DNA of 64,000 bases from a phage: NCBI GenBank assembly GCA_024572335.1, contig GCA_024572335.1_3052.1; one strand, 5' to 3'. Below the pieces are notes generated by a model. The model saw only the letters and a program-made list of their open reading frames with translations. It did not search any database and was not told the origin of the DNA. Shown in pieces: positions 1,512-63,522 of this stretch; positions within the stretch are counted from its first letter, which is position 1; every line of letters starts with the position of its first letter. A program made the position numbers and the translations under genes.

Positions 1512-2024
1512 TTAATCTAAGGTAATAAAGCCTTTTAATTCGGCGTGTGATTTGCGGAACATTACTTGATGTCCGCCAATGATAACTTGGTCATCTGGAA
1601 CTTCATAAATCGCAATGTACATTCCACGTTCTTTTAAGTCTTCACGCTCTTCTCGAGTGAACCATCTCATCATATCATATTCACTAGCGAAAGCAAAATG
1701 ATATAATGCAATAAACCACAATGGAATATAATTTTCAATTCGTGAATAATCTTTATTCCATTTAGTTTTAATAACATCATTAGCATTTTCAACTAATAAC
1801 TTATCATCGTGTGGAATAGGAATACTTTCATGGCTTTCATAATTATCGCTATGATGATGAAATGACGATGAATTAATACCGCAAAATTTTAGCCAAGTTC
1901 GAGTTTTCATAGAATCAAATCCACGATAAGGAGTTGATTGAACGCATAACTCTTGCCTAATTTTCATTATACCACTATCATCATTTAATGCGCTAAACGA
2001 TGATTCAACACGATAAATTTTCAT
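1512..2024 (-). CDS. Hypothetical protein
   Basis: Track ORF 1512..2063 begins at TTG inside a promoter; internal ATG at 2024 (MKIYRV) follows SD GAGGA. Confidence 0.5.
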   Translation of the reverse strand: MKIYRVESSFSALNDDSGIMKIRQELCVQSTPYRGFDSMKTRTWLKFCGINSSSFHHHSDNYESHESIPIPHDDKLLVENANDVIKTKWNKDYSRIENYIPLWFIALYHFAFASEYDMMRWFTREEREDLKERGMYIAIYEVPDDQVIIGGHQVMFRKSHAELKGFITLD

Positions 2025-2087: not shown

Positions 2088-2771
2088 TTATCGTTTTGTT
2101 GGAAGAGACAGAGGATCGCACTCTTCCTCTGACGGAGCATCTTCAAGACCCATAGCATATCGCAAAGCATACTTCATCATCAGGATGTCTTTCGCACAAT
2201 CATGAATAGAATCATGCGCAACGAATCCATCTAAAGTTCCCTTTGGAAGAGGACATGTAGTCATATCACGAACAAGCAGAAGTGCTTCAATTCTGGTACG
2301 AATATCACGCTGATTCCAAAATTTACAAGGTTCTAACTTAAATGTATCAAGCTCATTCTCGGAAACACCATTAAGACGTTGAATATCGCGAATGAGATCA
2401 ACTAAAATTGGAAAATCAAACGACATTCCACGGCACCAGCCTTGAGATTTCCAAGGATCGATGTTATGTGCATTGATGTAATCATTAAATTTTGCAATAC
2501 CATCGATAGTGCTTACATCTTCATCTGATGGTGCAATATTTTTTCGAGCTTCAGGAGATTGATTTTTCCACCATTCGATAGTGCTTTTAGTAAAAAGACG
2601 ATGTCCTTTTTGACTTTTTAAGTCAAATTTAATTTTAATGCCACGTGAAACTAATTCATCGAATGTTTCAACAACTTCCGGGTTAGGGTCAAAAGCAATT
2701 ACAGCCAAATCAATAACAGCTGCTTTTTCACCGCTTCCCATCGTTTCAAAATCTATAATAAAATCAAACAT
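2088..2771 (-). CDS. dexA: Exonuclease A (DexA), DEDD-type 3'-5' exonuclease
   Basis: 227 aa, matching T4 DexA size; N-terminal FIIDFETMG acidic motif; position below dda. Confidence 0.8.
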   Translation of the reverse strand: MFDFIIDFETMGSGEKAAVIDLAVIAFDPNPEVVETFDELVSRGIKIKFDLKSQKGHRLFTKSTIEWWKNQSPEARKNIAPSDEDVSTIDGIAKFNDYINAHNIDPWKSQGWCRGMSFDFPILVDLIRDIQRLNGVSENELDTFKLEPCKFWNQRDIRTRIEALLLVRDMTTCPLPKGTLDGFVAHDSIHDCAKDILMMKYALRYAMGLEDAPSEEECDPLSLPTKR

Positions 2772-7477: not shown

Positions 7478-7948
7478 CTAGCGATAAAAACCAAATTGAC
7501 GATTAGTTTCAATGATCTTTCTTTCTTCTTCGGACATTCTCCAGCGTAGTCCAACATCAAAATGAGCCCAGACCATCCTAACAAATGCATTTATATCTTT
7601 AATATCTTCAATAATGAATGTTTTACTTTTAGAAGGTTGACTCGCTAATTTAACTTTATCGTCTTCAAACATGTCAAAAAGACCATATTCATGAGCTCTT
7701 TTATAGCCTTTAATAGTTAAAGCTTCAGAAGAAGAAAATGGTGAATCTGTATTCTGCAAAATATCTTCAGTATGCTTTATAATTAGAATAATATTTTCTG
7801 GATATTTTCTTTCTTTTATATCTTTAATTAAAATATCCGGATTTTCTGCTAAAGGAATAATTAACGAGCATTTTTTATCAAGTGTATTTACTGATTTACC
7901 TTCTTTAGACATAAATCCTATTGAATACAGTTTTGCTACTTCAATCAT
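7478..7948 (-). CDS. Hypothetical protein
   Basis: 156 aa ATG ORF. Confidence 0.5.
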
Positions 7949-8101
7949 GTGATTTCCTCTTGCCTACTAATGGACCGTCAGGAATTTTATTTTCCTGAAT
8001 GTATTTTTCATTTTCTTCCATCATTTTACTGCCAATTTTAAGAAGCAAATCCAAAGCTTCATTTGCTTTAGCCTTTGCCTCTTCTAACGTCATATCTTTG
8101 G

Positions 8102-8305
8102 TCATGATTTATCACCATAGATGTCTCTCATCAATTTAAGCGCTGAGCGTTCTAATTTCTTTTCTTTCTCAGCACTAATCATTGATTTCATCCATTCTTC
8201 TGACTCGTTCTGCATTTCTTTATTTGCTTGTTCAACCCAACCATCATCAATATACATTGAGTTTGGTCTATTGAACCATTCAAGAATCTTCTTGAGAGCT
8301 TTCAT
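8102..8305 (-). CDS. Hypothetical small protein
   Basis: 67 aa ATG ORF. Confidence 0.4.
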
Positions 8306-8765
8306 TTATTTTACCTAAAACAATAGTATGGACACCGTCAAATTCATGAATTTTTAGCAAATTTGGATGTAAACTATTCCATACAGAAGAAATAAAGTAT
8401 GATAACGCATCTTCACTCGCAATTATAAATTTGTTTCCTTTATCTATTTTCCAGTTATATATTGAATCGTACGAATAAAAAGATAAGGGTTTATCATTAT
8501 ATTGTTCTGCGCTAACATTAATGTATTCGGATTTAGTAAATGCTTCAATTGCTCTAAATGGAATATTTGGTACAGTTTCAATAATTCCGATCTTTTTAAG
8601 TTTTATTTCAGCATCTTCTGGAACTGGCATTGAAACGAAATTTTCTACGAGATACATTGGGTCACAATAACCCTTATCAATCACTACGGCTACAGTAATT
8701 GGAACATCTTTAGCAAACGACATGCTATTACTGCTAATATACATTTCAAACAAAATCGCTTCCAT
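8280..8765 (-). CDS. Hypothetical protein
   Basis: Track ORF 8280..8777 has TTG start; internal ATG at 8765 (MEAILF) follows SD GAGGA. Confidence 0.45.
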
Positions 8766-10330: not shown

Positions 10331-11670
<1,340 letters not shown>

Positions 11671-11769: not shown

Positions 11770-11970
11770 ATGGTACAAAAATTAATGGCACTTGTTAATG
11801 CCATAAAAGGTAATAAGAAACGTATAGCTTTTACTATTTCTGCTATGATAGGAATTTTACTTTGGAATTTTGTTTTATCGCCAGTTGCTATTGCTCATGG
11901 CGTTAGTATTCCAGTAGTTACTCTTGATACATTCGTAGATTTAGCATTTGCTTTAGTTGGGTTAATTTAA
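11770..11970 (+). CDS. Small hydrophobic membrane protein, the only convincing plus-strand gene
   Basis: 66 aa; strong RBS AAAGGAGG 5 nt before ATG; predicted TM helix; stop codon overlaps gene 61 stop on the opposite strand. Confidence 0.5.
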   Translation: MVQKLMALVNAIKGNKKRIAFTISAMIGILLWNFVLSPVAIAHGVSIPVVTLDTFVDLAFALVGLI

Positions 11971-12995
11971 ATCTTAGCATATTTAGATAGCCGCATTTTA
12001 GCCATCAACCCCTGGGCAATATTATTTTTCATATATTCCATAATTTGTTCAGGGGTTGCACCTTCCTTTCTAATCATATCATTAACATCTTTTGATTTCC
12101 AGGGAGATTTATCCCAAAACATAACCCTTTCTCCTGCATCAACTAATTTAGTCATTCGTTTAATAGTGTCAGGGTGACGAGGTTCATTATCTAAGACCCA
12201 CACTCGTCTATCTTTAAATGGAACAACTTCTAGGTCTAATTGACCACCCGTAATAGCTATACCATTTTCAATAAAAAGTGAATCTATAGGTCCTTCTAGA
12301 ACATATACATCACCATCTTTGACTCGTTCGACTCCATAGATTTTTGTTGCCTCAGGATAAGCTTTGATGGTGATATATTTTTGAGGAGCATCTTTCTTTA
12401 ATGCACGTCCTTGAAAAGACTCAGCTTTTCCGTTAGCATTATAAATTGGAATAACAAGACGAGGCTCAGGTGTTTCCTTTTTATATGTTCCTGGAGCTAT
12501 ACTATTAACTAATTTAGGCCATTCAGTTGTAAACCAAAGATATTTCCATTTATCCTTTGGAATACAACGAGCTTTTACATATTTTATAATTGCATGGTCT
12601 TCCGCCAATTTATCTAATCTGATGCATGACGGAAGAGATTTAATTATTTTCTTCTCAGGTTGTTTAGGAAGTTCTTTAGGTTTTTCTACTGGACGACTTT
12701 TACCTTTTTCTTTTCTTATTTCAAAGATATACTCACGATATAAATCAGGTTCAAACTCCTTTAAATATATTCCGATTGGTGCATGATAGTTACAGTTATA
12801 ACAATGAATATTTCCTTCATTATTATCACCGTAATACCATCCACGGGCTTTATTCTGGTCGGTTTTTGAATCTCCACAAACAGGACATCTAAACCGTAAT
12901 TTAAAAGTTGAACTATTATTTACTTGTGTGAATTTAGGTAAATGAGCTAATGCACGGTATGCAAACTCATTATCAATCCAAGGTATTGATGACAT
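11967..12995 (-). CDS. 61: DNA primase gp61
   Basis: 342 aa; zinc ribbon CPVCGDSK...CYNC; TOPRIM-like EGPIDSL; adjacent to helicase 41 region. Confidence 0.9.
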   Translation of the reverse strand: MSSIPWIDNEFAYRALAHLPKFTQVNNSSTFKLRFRCPVCGDSKTDQNKARGWYYGDNNEGNIHCYNCNYHAPIGIYLKEFEPDLYREYIFEIRKEKGKSRPVEKPKELPKQPEKKIIKSLPSCIRLDKLAEDHAIIKYVKARCIPKDKWKYLWFTTEWPKLVNSIAPGTYKKETPEPRLVIPIYNANGKAESFQGRALKKDAPQKYITIKAYPEATKIYGVERVKDGDVYVLEGPIDSLFIENGIAITGGQLDLEVVPFKDRRVWVLDNEPRHPDTIKRMTKLVDAGERVMFWDKSPWKSKDVNDMIRKEGATPEQIMEYMKNNIAQGLMAKMRLSKYAKI

Positions 12996-12997
12996 TT

Positions 12998-13162
12998 TTA
13001 CTCTTCTTTTTCTTTAGATTCCTCTTTTTTCTTTTTAGGAATCTGTTCAGGACCTTTATTTACTACAGCGCCTGATGTTGTTCCAGTAGAGATATTTTCA
13101 GGACTACCACCTGAATCTCCAGCGACCATATTTTCTTTGATAAATTCTTTATATGTTTTCAT
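12998..13162 (-). CDS. Small low-complexity protein with capsid-targeting-like N-terminus
   Basis: 54 aa ORF not in track (below 60 aa); translated by hand: MKTYKEFIKENMVAGDSGGSPENISTGTTSGAVVNKGPEQIPKKKKEESKEKEE; stop 2 nt before gene 61 ATG. Confidence 0.35.
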   Translation of the reverse strand: MKTYKEFIKENMVAGDSGGSPENISTGTTSGAVVNKGPEQIPKKKKEESKEKEE

Positions 13163-13206
13163 ATTAACCTCTATTCATAAAAGCATTAAAAATTTGGTCA
13201 TCAATA
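13160..13206. repeat. Direct repeat copy A (3' end of the 118-aa gene plus next start codon)
   Basis: About 47 nt, roughly 90 percent identical to 13518..13564. Confidence 0.8.
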
Positions 13207-13520
13207 GATGGCGCAGTAATATTTTCTGCATCATTTAGCAAATCATTAATTTCATCAGATAGCATAACACACGTACCTTTATTTCCTGTAATTGTTACTG
13301 CACAATTACGAACGTTTTCTTTATCAAATTTTAGGTTAATATTTTCATAGTGAAAATCCTTTAATGCCGAATATATCTTTAAAATGAAATTGTCTTTTAC
13401 TACAATAAACCCAACCTCACTATTAAAACGCGGTTCATGGAAACTGTAATAAACCTTTTCATCTATAAAATCGTATGAAATTTTTTCCATTTTTAAATAT
13501 GAAAATTCAGAACTATACAT
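13164..13520 (-). CDS. Hypothetical protein (61.1/61.2 region)
   Basis: 118 aa ATG ORF; C-terminal SIDDQIFNAFMNRG duplicated from upstream gene. Confidence 0.5.
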   Translation of the reverse strand: MYSSEFSYLKMEKISYDFIDEKVYYSFHEPRFNSEVGFIVVKDNFILKIYSALKDFHYENINLKFDKENVRNCAVTITGNKGTCVMLSDEINDLLNDAENITAPSIDDQIFNAFMNRG

Positions 13521-13564
13521 ATTAACCTTTATTCATAAAAGCATTAAAAATTTGATCGTCAATA
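13518..13564. repeat. Direct repeat copy B (3' end of the 213-aa gene plus next start codon)
   Basis: Near-identical to 13160..13206; both encode IDDQIFNAFMN[RK]G-stop. Confidence 0.8.
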
Positions 13565-14154
13565 GAAACTTTTACTTTAGGCTGTTCTTCAAACGGTAAT
13601 TCATATCCACATATTACAATTTTGTGATCGATACCAAAATACACAGAAGCAATATTATTAATATTATTTTCAGTGAAATCTAAATCAACATCAATATCTT
13701 TTTGACTAACGCTCAAAGGATAATTAATACGAATAATTCGATTATCTTTAACAAAGATTCCACCGACATACTCTGTGCTGCGTTTAAAGTTTACACGTTT
13801 CCTAAATGAAAAATATTCAGGTTCTTTATGCGCTCGACTCATAGGGCTTAAAGTGTATTCCGAATATGAAATATCAAATCCTACACCTTCAATATGAGCC
13901 AACGTGTCATGATTAAACCAATTATAATCATATGCCAAATCCATTATATTGTAATATGTGAAAGGCACCGGATTAACATCATGTGTTGTACCTTTAAAAT
14001 CTGCCCAGGCAACGATTTCGTTATCTTTAACAATTACAAAAATTGTGCCAATAAGATATCCACGGTTATTTTCATCAGGCGTTATATTATAACATTGTGC
14101 ATCAGGAAATTTACCGTATTTAAACGGTGGATTTTTGTGCATATAATAAATCAT
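13522..14154 (-). CDS. Hypothetical protein (61.1/61.2 region)
   Basis: Track ORF 13522..14163 has GTG start; ATG at 14154; C-terminal SIDDQIFNAFMNKG. Confidence 0.5.
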   Translation of the reverse strand: MIYYMHKNPPFKYGKFPDAQCYNITPDENNRGYLIGTIFVIVKDNEIVAWADFKGTTHDVNPVPFTYYNIMDLAYDYNWFNHDTLAHIEGVGFDISYSEYTLSPMSRAHKEPEYFSFRKRVNFKRSTEYVGGIFVKDNRIIRINYPLSVSQKDIDVDLDFTENNINNIASVYFGIDHKIVICGYELPFEEQPKVKVSIDDQIFNAFMNKG

Positions 14155-51144: not shown

Positions 51145-51186
51145 ATATACCCCTTTAGTTAGATAAACCTATTTATAACTTTTGCA

Positions 51187-56535: not shown

Positions 56536-57009
56536 TTATTTGAACGATTTAACGTACTGAATAGAACCCTTACTATTCACAAAGGCAATTTTACCATTTT
56601 TATTATACATGGTAGCAGTACGCTGATAACCATAGGTTTGTTTACCAGATTGATAACCAACTAATGCAAAATTATCTTCACCCATTTTATTCTGTTTAGC
56701 GCGAATGCGTTCATGACCATGTGCCATAAGAACCTTAGCATCACCAGTTGCAATGGATCGACGAGTTTTTTCATCTTCAACTGCATTAACAAAGTCGTCA
56801 AATGAATCAAATTTAGCATGAGATTTATTATACAATTTTCCATCTACTGCATAATTATATCCCTGTACATCCATCTCAACTTCTGTACCATCATCCAATA
56901 CAGCAGTAATTTTTTGACCTTTTTTAAATTTCAAAAGATCAGTAAAAGATTCAGCAATAATTTGAGAATTAATAGCTGCTTCAGTGATAAATTCTTGATA
57001 TGTTTTCAT
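56536..57009 (-). CDS. Internal protein (IP) with capsid targeting sequence
   Basis: 157 aa; N-terminal MKTYQEFITEA matches the T4 IP capsid-targeting decapeptide; located just downstream of e as T4 ipIII/ipII. Confidence 0.6.
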   Translation of the reverse strand: MKTYQEFITEAAINSQIIAESFTDLLKFKKGQKITAVLDDGTEVEMDVQGYNYAVDGKLYNKSHAKFDSFDDFVNAVEDEKTRRSIATGDAKVLMAHGHERIRAKQNKMGEDNFALVGYQSGKQTYGYQRTATMYNKNGKIAFVNSKGSIQYVKSFK

Positions 57010-57097: not shown

Positions 57098-58066
<969 letters not shown>

Positions 58067-61465: not shown

Positions 61466-61939
61466 TTATTTGATTTGTTTAGCAGACCAAATGCGGTCTT
61501 TAATAATTTTTTGGATGTCTTCAACATACTCAAGAGAGTGAGCATGTGGGTTATCTTTGAAACTATAAGCACGAGCTAACTTTTGACCTTCAGTTTTGAT
61601 TACTAAAAGCTCTTTAAGGATAGCTTCATATTTGGAGATAATTCCTTTAACAATATTTTTCTCTTGTGCGACTTTAGGATCTGCTTTAGGAGCAGGTTTA
61701 CCCGAAGCCTTTGCAAAAGCAGCGCCAGTAGCAACTAAACTTTTCCAGGCCATACTAACTGCATTTCCCGTAAATCCTTCTGCTTTCATGTCGCGAGCAA
61801 ATTGGAATCGTGATTCATCAGAAGCATCTTTATAGGAATATTTACCCGCTGCAATGGCTGCTTTTGCGACAGCTTGAATTTCGGTGCTAGACGCTTCATT
61901 TAACACCGCTTCATTTAAAAATTGAGTATATGATTTCAT
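61466..61939 (-). CDS. Internal-protein-like gene with capsid-targeting-like N-terminus
   Basis: 157 aa; N-terminal MKSYTQFLNEA; late promoter TATAAATA upstream; flanked by duplicated terminator hairpins. Confidence 0.5.
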   Translation of the reverse strand: MKSYTQFLNEAVLNEASSTEIQAVAKAAIAAGKYSYKDASDESRFQFARDMKAEGFTGNAVSMAWKSLVATGAAFAKASGKPAPKADPKVAQEKNIVKGIISKYEAILKELLVIKTEGQKLARAYSFKDNPHAHSLEYVEDIQKIIKDRIWSAKQIK

Positions 61940-61975: not shown

Positions 61976-61983
61976 TATTTATA
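61976..61983 (-). promoter_or_regulatory. Late promoter upstream of the IP-like gene
   Basis: TATAAATA on minus strand about 35 nt upstream of ATG 61939. Confidence 0.55.
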
Positions 61984-61989
61984 CTAAAA

Positions 61990-62013
61990 AGCCCCAACCT
62001 TTCGGCTGGGGCT
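61990..62013 (-). terminator. Terminator after the tRNA/stable-RNA region (copy 2 of the repeated hairpin)
   Basis: AGCCCCAGCCGAAAGGUUGGGGCU followed by U5. Confidence 0.7.
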
Positions 62014-62693: not shown

Positions 62694-62770
<77 letters not shown>

Positions 62771-62777
62771 TATTTTG

Positions 62778-62849
62778 CGGACGTGATAGGATTCGAACCT
62801 ATAACCAATCGCTTAACAGGCGATCGCTCTGCCATTGAGCTACACATCC
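62778..62849 (-). tRNA. tRNA-Asn (anticodon GUU)
   Basis: Acceptor GGATGTG/CACGTCC, D-stem GCTC/GAGC, anticodon stem ATCGC/GCGAT, loop CTGTTAA, T-loop TTCGAAT; CCA not encoded. Confidence 0.8.
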
Positions 62850-62853
62850 AAAT

Positions 62854-62940
62854 TGGTGGGGAGTGGTGGAGTCGAACCACCCGAGTCGCAATGACAATGA
62901 ATTTACAGTCCACACCGCTACCTCTACGGGATAACTCCCC
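62854..62940 (-). tRNA. tRNA-Tyr (anticodon GUA), long variable arm
   Basis: Acceptor GGGGAGT/ACTCCCC, anticodon loop CTGTAAA, variable arm TGTCATTGCGACTCG similar to E. coli tRNA-Tyr; CCA encoded. Confidence 0.75.
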
Positions 62941-62949
62941 AAATTAATT

Positions 62950-63024
62950 TGGTGGCCCTGGGTGGAATTGAACCACCATCTGGCGATTATGAGTCGCTTG
63001 CTTGAACCTTCCAGCTACAGGGCC
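62950..63024 (-). tRNA. tRNA-Ile (anticodon CAU, lysidine-type as in T4) or Met
   Basis: Acceptor GGCCCTG/CAGGGCC, anticodon loop CTCATAA, T-arm GGTGG-TTCAATT-CCACC; CCA encoded. Confidence 0.75.
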
Positions 63025-63025
63025 T

Positions 63026-63101
63026 TGGTGCTGATTAACGGAATCGAACCGCCGACCTTCTCATTACAAGTGAGTTGCTCTACCTACTGAGCTAAATCAG
63101 C
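63026..63101 (-). tRNA. tRNA-Thr (anticodon UGU)
   Basis: Acceptor GCTGATT, D-stem GCTC/GAGC, anticodon loop CTTGTAA, T-loop TTCGATT; CCA encoded. Confidence 0.85.
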
Positions 63102-63106
63102 AAAAC

Positions 63107-63196
63107 TGGCGGAGGCGATAGGATTTGAACCTATGAGTCGCCGGAGCGACTGCCGGTTTTCAAGACCGGTGCATTAAACCACTCTGCCACGCCTCC
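63107..63196 (-). tRNA. tRNA-Ser (anticodon UGA), long variable arm
   Basis: Acceptor GGAGGCG, anticodon stem CCGGT/ACCGG, loop CTTGAAA, long variable arm; CCA encoded. Confidence 0.85.
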
Positions 63197-63198
63197 AG

Positions 63199-63272
63199 TC
63201 TCCATACAAGGATTTGAACCTTGGACCTCCTGATCCCAAATCAGGCGCTCTACCAAACTGAGCTACACGGAG
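63199..63272 (-). tRNA. tRNA-Pro (anticodon UGG)
   Basis: Acceptor CTCCGTG, anticodon stem CCTGA/TCAGG, loop TTTGGGA, T-loop TTCAAAT; CCA not encoded. Confidence 0.85.
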
Positions 63273-63282
63273 TAAATTAAAT

Positions 63283-63356
<74 letters not shown>

Positions 63357-63361
63357 AAATT

Positions 63362-63448
63362 TGGTGCGAGAAGTGGGACTCGAACCCACAAGGAAATCAT
63401 TCCGCAGCATTTTAAGTGCTGTGCCTTTACCAATTTGACCATTCTCGC
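63362..63448 (-). tRNA. tRNA-Leu (anticodon UAA), long variable arm
   Basis: Acceptor GCGAGAA, anticodon stem CAGCA/TGCTG, loop CTTAAAA, long variable arm, T-loop TTCGAGT; CCA encoded. Confidence 0.85.
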
Positions 63449-63449
63449 G

Positions 63450-63522
63450 CTGGGAATAAAGGACTCGAACCTTTGCATCCTGGAATCAAAATCCAGTGCC
63501 TTACCAACTTGGCTAATTCCCA
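63450..63522 (-). tRNA. tRNA-Gln (anticodon UUG)
   Basis: Acceptor TGGGAAT/ATTCCCA, anticodon stem CTGGA/TCCAG, loop TTTTGAT; CCA not encoded; separated from tRNA-Leu by 1 nt. Confidence 0.85.

Follow-up and report, generated by a model that had tools for sequence, protein, structure and literature searches.

The phage DNA analysed here, a stretch of 64,000 nucleotides (nt) from contig GCA_024572335.1_3052.1 (in the following, the window), carries a 54-codon open reading frame (ORF) which was identified as gene 61.1 of phage T4. Its product of 54 amino acids (aa), MKTYKEFIKENMVAGDSGGSPENISTGTTSGAVVNKGPEQIPKKKKEESKEKEE, appears to be an ancient free-standing copy of the maturation junction in gp23, which is the major capsid protein, comprising the end of the propeptide, the L/I-x-E cleavage site and about 28 residues of the mature chain, to which a lysine-rich tail is added. 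We tentatively propose that gp61.1 is a small accessory, head-directed substrate of the prohead protease gp21 which is cut after Glu10, an assignment to which we give somewhat less than an even chance. The ORF is one of three in the window whose N-termini resemble the capsid-targeting sequence (CTS) of T4 internal proteins; the two others encode 157 aa each. The coordinates of all features are compiled in Table 1.

Gene 61.1 and the maturation junction of gp23

Over its full length (residues 1-54) the product matches the protein family phrog_1823 (E = 1.5e-32), and it also matches the C-terminal 46 positions of phrog_2086 (E = 4.6e-16); the full-length profile match and the position next to the primase gene together place it in the 61.1 family. 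The sequence-only reading of the window had described the ORF as unlisted, which does not hold in general, T4 gene 61.1, itself annotated as 'hypothetical', being an annotated gene in most related genomes; its statement that the ORF ends 2 nt ahead of the ATG of gene 61 was confirmed from the sequence. The stop codon occupies positions 12998-13000, and the TAA of the upstream gene positions 13164-13166. Between lineages with synonymous sites at or near saturation, the ratio of nonsynonymous to synonymous substitutions (dN/dS) in a 33-codon core of 61.1 is 0.03-0.11, and 61.1 is therefore considered a genuine coding gene. A chance resemblance to gp23 or a decaying, functionless duplication of a gene 23 fragment is nearly excluded by this selection analysis. 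The retention in about 1,480 phage records from many host genera, the gene's own ribosome-binding site and the promoters and terminators found in several lineages likewise speak against a remnant. A precedent for such a remnant exists in alt.-1 and alt.-2 of T4, annotated as old partial duplications that cover the 5′ portion of the gene for Alt, a protein packaged into the head and processed by gp21, and the 61.1 protein has indeed gone undetected in T4 and is dispensable. What sets 61.1 apart from a remnant is its wide conservation together with strong purifying selection.

Residues 2-38 of gp61.1 align without gaps to residues 57-93 of gp23 (BLASTP, 41% identity over 37 aa, pairwise E = 1e-8; the gp23 query matched annotated major capsid proteins at 100%). 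When the profile of the 61.1 family is aligned with one built from the N-termini of four gp23 proteins (hhalign, E = 7.5e-11 at a probability of 97.1%), I8-K46 comes to lie on L63-R101, and I8-K9-E10 therefore exactly on L63-T64-E65 of gp23. It is after Glu65 that gp21 cuts off the 65-residue propeptide of gp23; residues 66-105 are disordered inside the unexpanded shell, where they probably touch the scaffolding core, and become the external N-arm and N-fist once the shell expands (PMC9546572). The sequence-only reading had noted a resemblance to head proteins for the N-terminal decapeptide, but the next 28 residues of gp61.1 are homologous as well, namely to the N-terminus of mature gp23. Both proteins share an ungapped stretch of 37-39 residues with the protease site in register and the pattern G-D-x-G...N-I-A-x-G-x-T-S-G-A-V...G-P, and the residues invariant in the 61.1 family (V/A-G-D-x-G, I-A-x-G-x-T-x-G-A and G-P) are those in common with gp23.

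Unlike gp23, gp61.1 lacks the HK97-fold body, the long propeptide and the Gol region; it is only 54 aa long and has no Pfam match at E up to 0.1. The homology does not extend outside gp23 residues 57-101 and is strong up to residue 93 only, past which gp23 continues with PAVMGMVRR and gp61.1 with its charged tail, so that lysine-rich sequence stands in place of AVMGMVRR, and the signature reads GDSGG in gp61.1 and GDHGY in gp23. Most lineages have a strongly basic tail (pI 8.4-10.6 after the predicted cut); that of the window is of mixed charge, and the predicted 44-aa peptide is acidic there (pI 5.4). The string G-D-S-G-G-S-P at 13100..13117 (codons 16-21) equals the active-site string of chymotrypsin-like serine proteases; we take this match as a coincidence and rejected GDSGG as a protease motif because many orthologs carry alanine in place of the serine (GDAGG).

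In an identity matrix, the gp23 modules are 68-87% identical among themselves and the 61.1 modules 52-90%, while the cross-identity amounts to 45-58%. Concerted evolution or co-variation with the phage's own gp23 was rejected, as the modules form two separate groups without excess identity of 61.1 to the gp23 of the same phage; these separate groups argue for an ancient duplication and not for ongoing gene conversion. Several 61.1 homologs (Serratia phage WSPA, Erwinia phage Cronus by reference, EcS1, JLBYU phages and teq phages) are labelled 'major capsid (domain-containing) protein' in GenBank or UniRef because of the 35-40-residue homology to gp23. Since 61.1 is devoid of the capsid fold, this recurring label is an overstatement and a propagated mis-annotation which is corrected here. 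The annotated start of 61.1 in phage WSPA (locus L004, 1234..1653) is, in addition, 19 codons too late. No paper tying 61.1 to the CTS or to gp23 was found in the literature searched, outside of which the T4 genome review PMC150520 lay.

Targeting-like start and cleavage motif in the 61.1 family

When every frame of the window that starts with ATG and spans 30 codons or more (813 in total) was searched with the pattern MK[TS][YFW].[EDQ]F[ILMV].E, the matches were exactly the three ORFs for which the sequence-only reading had claimed capsid-targeting-like starts. The pattern had no match in 100 mononucleotide shuffles, and a looser one averages 0.03 matches per shuffle. Residues 4 and 7 of the CTS are important in targeting, residues 8 and 10 in cleavage, and the ten residues suffice alone to package foreign proteins (reviewed in PMC9026906). 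All three N-termini agree with this experimentally defined signal, gp61.1 by Y4 and F7 and by I8-K9-E10 as an (I/L)-x-E protease motif. Its start MKTYKEFIKE is identical in 8 of 10 residues to MKTYQEFIAE, the T4 CTS as quoted, unverified, in the sequence-only reading, and in 9 of 10 to that of JS98 ipIII (MKTYKEFIAE), and 27 of its first 30 nt are identical to the start of ORF 56536..57009. The decapeptide thus lies within the natural range of annotated internal-protein starts, such as that of JS98 ipIII and MKTYQEFIKE of a 97-aa ORF of JS98.

The latter ORF (NC_010105, record 72260..72553, minus strand; locus L028, 20261..20554) occupies the ipI locus in the gap from trna.4 to 57B, has no feature in the RefSeq table there and is probably an unannotated internal protein. 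In Acinetobacter phage 133, three adjacent 'hypothetical' ORFs of 134, 105 and 106 aa (locus L007, 37814..38863, minus strand) start with MKTFTQISQE, MKTFTQIHEE and MKTFRELHED and look like that phage's version of CTS-bearing internal proteins; they are located near rIII/30.3 and not near e.

The module of 61.1 was found by tblastn in about 1,480 phage records with hosts including Escherichia, Klebsiella, Acinetobacter, Aeromonas and Vibrio; there were no cyanophages among the organisms listed for these matches. The short forms (52-64 aa, phrog_1823) have just a brief leader ahead of the module, whereas the long forms (mostly 150-177 aa, range 121-245, phrog_2086) consist of a helical N-terminal domain of about 100 residues followed by the module, for example in '61.1' of Acinetobacter phage 133, in Serratia phage WSPA and in the KVP40-like 'T4 GC1491'. 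For the gp23-like module in the long form, disorder is predicted, which would befit an arm, and the long form has no structural match to any characterised protein. In T4-type phages, the N-terminal domain of a longer ancestral form may have been swapped for a start indistinguishable from a CTS.

In nearly all of 52 distinct family members an [LIMV]-x-E motif (IKE, LNE, LTE, LFE, LLE, LYE, IDE, VTE, MNE or LSE) stands immediately ahead of ([DEASN])MVAGD; upstream of it, the sequences differ completely between the forms and are not alignable. Short forms of distant lineages begin with MK[ST][FY]xE[FVC] (T4, MKT[YF]KEF; JS98, MKSFKEV; AhFM11, MKSFMEV...IDE; 44RR-like, MKSFLEC...VDE; P0205, MKSFTEFV...IEE). 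Because this start persists even where the cleavage motif is shifted 10-16 residues farther along, start and cut site are conserved separately, and this is how a targeting signal combined with a processing site would look.

A library-wide profile search yielded 1,629 cluster representatives, mostly via the N-terminal domain of the long forms (phrog_18642, numerous distant relatives). It was swamped by this domain because the profile retained 154 positions, and hence gives no clean census of the gp23-like module, although it did add short forms. In the IMG/VR loci L035 and L058 (about 7630..8600), phrog_18642 directly follows a phrog_407 gene, with ribonucleotide reductase genes nearby. The C-termini of the phrog_18642 proteins are variable; some are lysine-rich and one has a segment common to giant phage proteins.

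Expression signals and the possible role of gp61.1

In 12 of the 52 distinct members, distributed over seven lineages, the exact late-promoter motif TATAAATA starts 21-32 nt ahead of the ATG, compared to about 0.2 such cases expected by chance from the frequency of the motif in shuffles. Among these lineages are JS98-like phages, three other short-form groups, Marfa-like phages, the long form of Acinetobacter phage 133 and a 245-aa form; six further family members have GATAAATA upstream.

The evidence shows for 61.1 a homology to gp23, conserved motifs, purifying selection, promoter motifs in several lineages and a dispensable gene. The events in the head are inferred, from targeting through cleavage to what becomes of the 44-aa peptide, and might comprise three steps. 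Residues 1-10, and perhaps the gp23-like arm too, would pull the gp61.1 present at prohead assembly into the scaffolding core. Subsequently, gp21 would cleave it after Glu10, as it cleaves gp23 after Glu65. Finally, the flexible 44-aa peptide would either stay with the DNA or the shell, or exit with the other core fragments. The role of gp61.1 in such a scenario would be accessory and not essential.

With the CTS-bearing internal proteins of T4-type phages, gp61.1 shares the decapeptide with an aromatic residue 4, F7, I8 and E10, the non-essential character and a transcript classed as early, as are those of ipII and ipIII in T4. There are also differences. Internal proteins are folded basic cargo, whereas the cargo of the 54-aa gp61.1 is a copy of the capsid N-arm which is predicted to be disordered; their genes occupy variable loci (near e, or at 57B/tRNA genes), whereas 61.1 does not behave as a gene of a lineage-variable internal-protein locus but is conserved across the T4-like phages examined, at the side of the primase gene in most loci; and 61.1 also occurs in a long form with a domain of about 100 aa in place of the CTS. 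IPI* is a folded inhibitor, while the product of the predicted cut in gp61.1 is a 44-aa acidic peptide whose long-form equivalent is predicted to be disordered. The reading as an injected anti-restriction effector therefore fits 61.1 least of the three ORFs. That the whole family constitutes an unrecognised class of head-directed peptides, delivered by a CTS or by the domain of about 100 residues, cut by gp21 and acting in maturation (by filling N-arm binding sites or contacting DNA via the lysine-rich tail) or after injection, is a broader proposal which we consider doubtful. As a corollary, if it were true, the targeting signal of internal proteins would descend from the capsid propeptide junction, with 61.1 as the surviving intermediate.

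A number of observations weigh against head targeting and cleavage of gp61.1. The motif TATAAATA is absent upstream of 61.1 in both the window and T4, the nearest copy on that strand of the window being located at 51170, 38 kb away, and a late promoter is not seen in most family members, the long forms included. In T4, the 61.1 transcript is classed as early, the protein was not detected in a time-resolved infection proteome, and 61.1 goes unmentioned in a mass-spectrometry study of T4 virions, supplements included, and is absent from the published prohead inventory (PMC9546572). The start is not uniformly CTS-like: JS98 61.1 (MKSFKEVMNE) has a valine at position 7 although the internal proteins of JS98 retain the canonical signal, and Marfa-like short forms begin with MTLLDQY. 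At the cleavage site, Yersinia JC221-like phages deviate by having ITD/IVD and Serratia SP1 by a site displaced by one residue, and the conserved [LI]-x-E could be retained merely as part of an inherited binding motif. At the two loci examined, the phrog_18642 relatives of the long-form N-terminal domain sit among nucleotide-metabolism genes and not among head genes; a head-module context was looked for there and not found, the neighbours being ribonucleotide reductase, exonuclease and phrog_407 genes. Finally, T4 suffered no loss of fitness from the knock-down of 61.1 in a CRISPRi-ART screen (PMC11879866 supplements; score -0.84, p 0.93, 'Not Fit'), so that 61.1 is not an essential head gene. 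As T4 also tolerates the loss of IPIII on the laboratory host, this dispensability is compatible with an accessory, internal-protein-like role.

The early transcription in T4 would also fit gp61.1 as an unpackaged cytoplasmic mimic of the gp23 maturation junction, made early and occupying a partner that normally recognises this stretch in nascent or unassembled gp23, in the manner of a decoy, timer or shield. The partner might be the protease gp21, the gp22 scaffold, gp31/GroEL in protein folding, EF-Tu or some host factor that senses capsid protein. In favour of a mimic are the coincidence of the family-invariant residues with those of gp23 and the predicted disorder, as in a linear binding motif. 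The existence of a separate ancient clade with 45-58% identity to gp23 and no excess to the own gp23 would fit independent selection for a shared partner. Moreover, the adjacent Gol region of gp23 triggers the Lit defence and binds EF-Tu (PMC3014915). On the other side, a mimic leaves the late promoters of seven lineages and the separately conserved MK[ST][FY]xE[FVC] start unexplained, and the strong gp23 homology stops at residue 93 with a charged tail beyond. The core Gol peptide presumably starts at about this residue; its coordinates were not found in the literature searched. The Gol/Lit idea on its own was set aside for the limited extent of the homology and is kept as part of the mimic proposal, which we regard as rather unlikely as a whole.

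The position of 61.1 directly upstream of the primase gene in most loci examined, often right after the helicase gene, could point to another function. This synteny was seen in T4, JLBYU31, Acinetobacter phage 133, Serratia WSPA, Vibrio phi-Grn1 and Aeromonas AhFM11. Accordingly, gp61.1 might be a replication accessory, a small primase-helicase partner co-translated with gene 61 and attaching by its own tail to DNA or to the acidic tail of the single-stranded DNA-binding protein. The 2-nt gap to the gene 61 ATG in the window suggests translational coupling, the tail is rich in lysine, and relatives of the long-form N-terminal domain lie near nucleotide-metabolism and exonuclease genes in unrelated marine phage contigs. 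However, neither the capsid-junction homology nor the conserved cleavage motif finds a reason in this assignment, and some lineages have an own late promoter for 61.1. In three lineages, a terminator-like hairpin with a T-run sets off the primase gene, and 61.1 is therefore not merely a primase leader. We consequently consider a replication function improbable.

The spacer between 61.1 and the primase gene contains a conserved GC-rich hairpin (loci L016/L020, about 1665..1700; L025, about 1675..1705; L004, about 1655..1690; L005, about 2665..2695). The hairpin, GGCTCT...AGAGCC, is without a T-run in JS98-like phages and followed by one in a 175-kb short-form lineage, in WSPA and in phi-Grn1, a variation which suggests that transcription into the primase gene may be regulated or terminated differently between lineages. 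A scan for sigma-70 promoters and terminators around 61.1 gave nothing specific. In the window, an adfA-like gene abuts 61.1 upstream, and the only near-match, TATGAATA at 13172-13179, was rejected as a late promoter, since it is too near to the 61.1 ATG to leave a ribosome-binding site.

The upstream neighbourhood also raises the question of an anti-defence function. The T4 gene order is kept in the window, where dmd, 61.4 (tifA), sp, two copies of 61.2 (adfA), the 54-codon ORF and gene 61 follow each other downwards on the minus strand. Positions 12900-13600 are 99.7% identical to several Tequatrovirus genomes, such as those of Shigella phage SHBML-50-1 and Escherichia phage JLBYU31. Srikant et al. 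termed this region an anti-toxin-antitoxin (anti-TA) island and named its other genes as candidates (PMC9391042), and 61.1, located directly downstream of the two adfA paralogs, sp, tifA and dmd, might thus neutralise a toxin-antitoxin system or another immunity, its likeness to gp23 and to the CTS being incidental. Like Dmd, TifA and AdfA, gp61.1 is small, non-essential (61.1 being dispensable on the laboratory host) and expressed early from the cluster between helicase gene 41 and primase gene 61. It has, however, no sequence relationship to them and, in Pfam and PHROGs, no similarity to known anti-defence proteins (the PADLOC library was not searched). It is far more widely conserved than these three and, unlike typical anti-defence genes, extends over very different hosts; it has late promoters in several lineages and keeps its adjacency to the primase gene in Vibrio, Aeromonas, Acinetobacter and Serratia phages in which dmd, tifA and adfA are missing. 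An anti-defence role hence appears quite unlikely, if slightly less so than one in replication.

The head assembly of T4 is among the best-studied assembly pathways, and the list of prohead components is regarded as complete; gp61.1 as a head-directed gp21 substrate would add a component or a regulator. It would also suggest an evolutionary origin of the signal by which T4 capsids are nowadays loaded with foreign proteins in vaccine and delivery work. The proposal provides a concrete hypothesis for a conserved T4 gene of long-unknown function, next to one unannotated candidate for an internal protein, ORF 61466..61939.

Internal-protein candidates and gene neighbourhood

Both 157-aa ORFs match the internal-protein class fully by sequence, as they combine a basic product, a CTS, an extra cleavage site and a late promoter. 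The sequence-only reading had regarded all three ORFs, if packaged, as candidates for injected effectors; by profile comparison, ORF 56536..57009 falls into an internal-virion-protein family and the two others into phrog_2280 and phrog_1823. ORF 56536..57009 matches phrog_3155 ('internal virion protein', E = 1.2e-101) and DUF7412 (E = 9.4e-96), both over the full length, its relatives in RefSeq are annotated as internal virion proteins, and its product has a pI of 8.9; on these matches it is assigned to an already known family of internal proteins. Read-through from the late promoters of gene e could provide for its transcription.

All 512 records that match ORF 61466..61939 call it 'hypothetical'. 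Its product starts with MKSYTQFLNE, has LNE at residues 8-10 and 13-15 and a pI of 9.5, and the start resembles that of JS98 orf135, MKTYNEFLNESVLNEAG, which likewise has a late promoter. Because of the basic product, the two LNE sites and the own late promoter, this ORF likely encodes a new internal protein, so far unannotated as such; with the CTS and the location in a variable locus, it displays the features of the class throughout. As a protein of the IPI and IPIII class, it may be injected and act in anti-defence.

Table 1. Positions of gene 61.1, its parts, the two 157-aa ORFs and neighbouring features in the window
Feature	Coordinates	Strand	Remarks
Gene 61.1, 54 codons and stop	12998..13162	-	T4 61.1 ortholog; phrog_1823; 50/54 identical to NP_049649.1
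61.1 codons 1-10, MKTYKEFIKE	13133..13162	-	CTS-like decapeptide with terminal I-K-E motif; E10 aligns with gp23 E65
61.1 codons 11-38, NMVAGDSGGSPENISTGTTSGAVVNKGP	13049..13132	-	putative copy of the mature gp23 N-terminal arm (gp23 66-93); BLASTP, hhalign
61.1 codons 39-54, EQIPKKKKEESKEKEE	13001..13048	-	lysine-rich charged tail; Lys/Arg-rich in all family members
Shine-Dalgarno sequence AGAGG of 61.1	13168..13172	-	within the 3′ end of the upstream gene; read from sequence
Gene 61, DNA primase, 342 aa	11967..12995	-	ATG 2 nt past the 61.1 stop
AdfA (gene 61.2, anti-DarT) paralog, 118 aa	13164..13520	-	Pfam AdfA, E = 1.1e-7
AdfA (gene 61.2, anti-DarT) paralog, 213 aa	13522..14163	-	Pfam AdfA, E = 2.9e-138
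Internal-virion-protein gene, 157 aa, MKTYQEFITE...	56536..57009	-	downstream of lysozyme gene e; second site IAE at residues 18-20
Gene e, T4-type lysozyme	57098..57592	-	farther along the window
Two late-promoter motifs TATAAATA	57606..57626	-	13 nt apart, upstream of gene e
Candidate internal-protein gene, 157 aa, MKSYTQFLNEAVLNE...	61466..61939	-	phrog_2280, function unassigned; between e.x genes and tRNA cluster
Late promoter TATAAATA	61976..61983	-	36 nt upstream of the ATG of ORF 61466..61939
GC-rich terminator hairpin and T-run	~61986-62012	-	just ahead of the late promoter at 61976..61983
Ten-tRNA cluster	62694..63522	-	Arg, Asn, Tyr, Met, Thr, Ser, Pro, Gly, Leu, Gln

The tandem AdfA paralogs directly upstream of 61.1 distinguish the window from T4, which has a single 61.2. 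The 213-aa copy is full, whereas the 118-aa copy covers the C-terminal half of the Pfam model only; both terminate in SIDDQIFNAFMN[RK]G. Downstream of the primase gene, the place of the T4 gene dam (GATC methylase) is taken in the window by a 186-aa ORF (11110..11670, minus strand) with a weak, sub-threshold Pfam similarity to the GATC restriction endonuclease DpnII (16.8 bits at a cut-off of 23) and also to BanI. A hydrophobic ORF of 66 aa is located on the plus strand (11770..11970).

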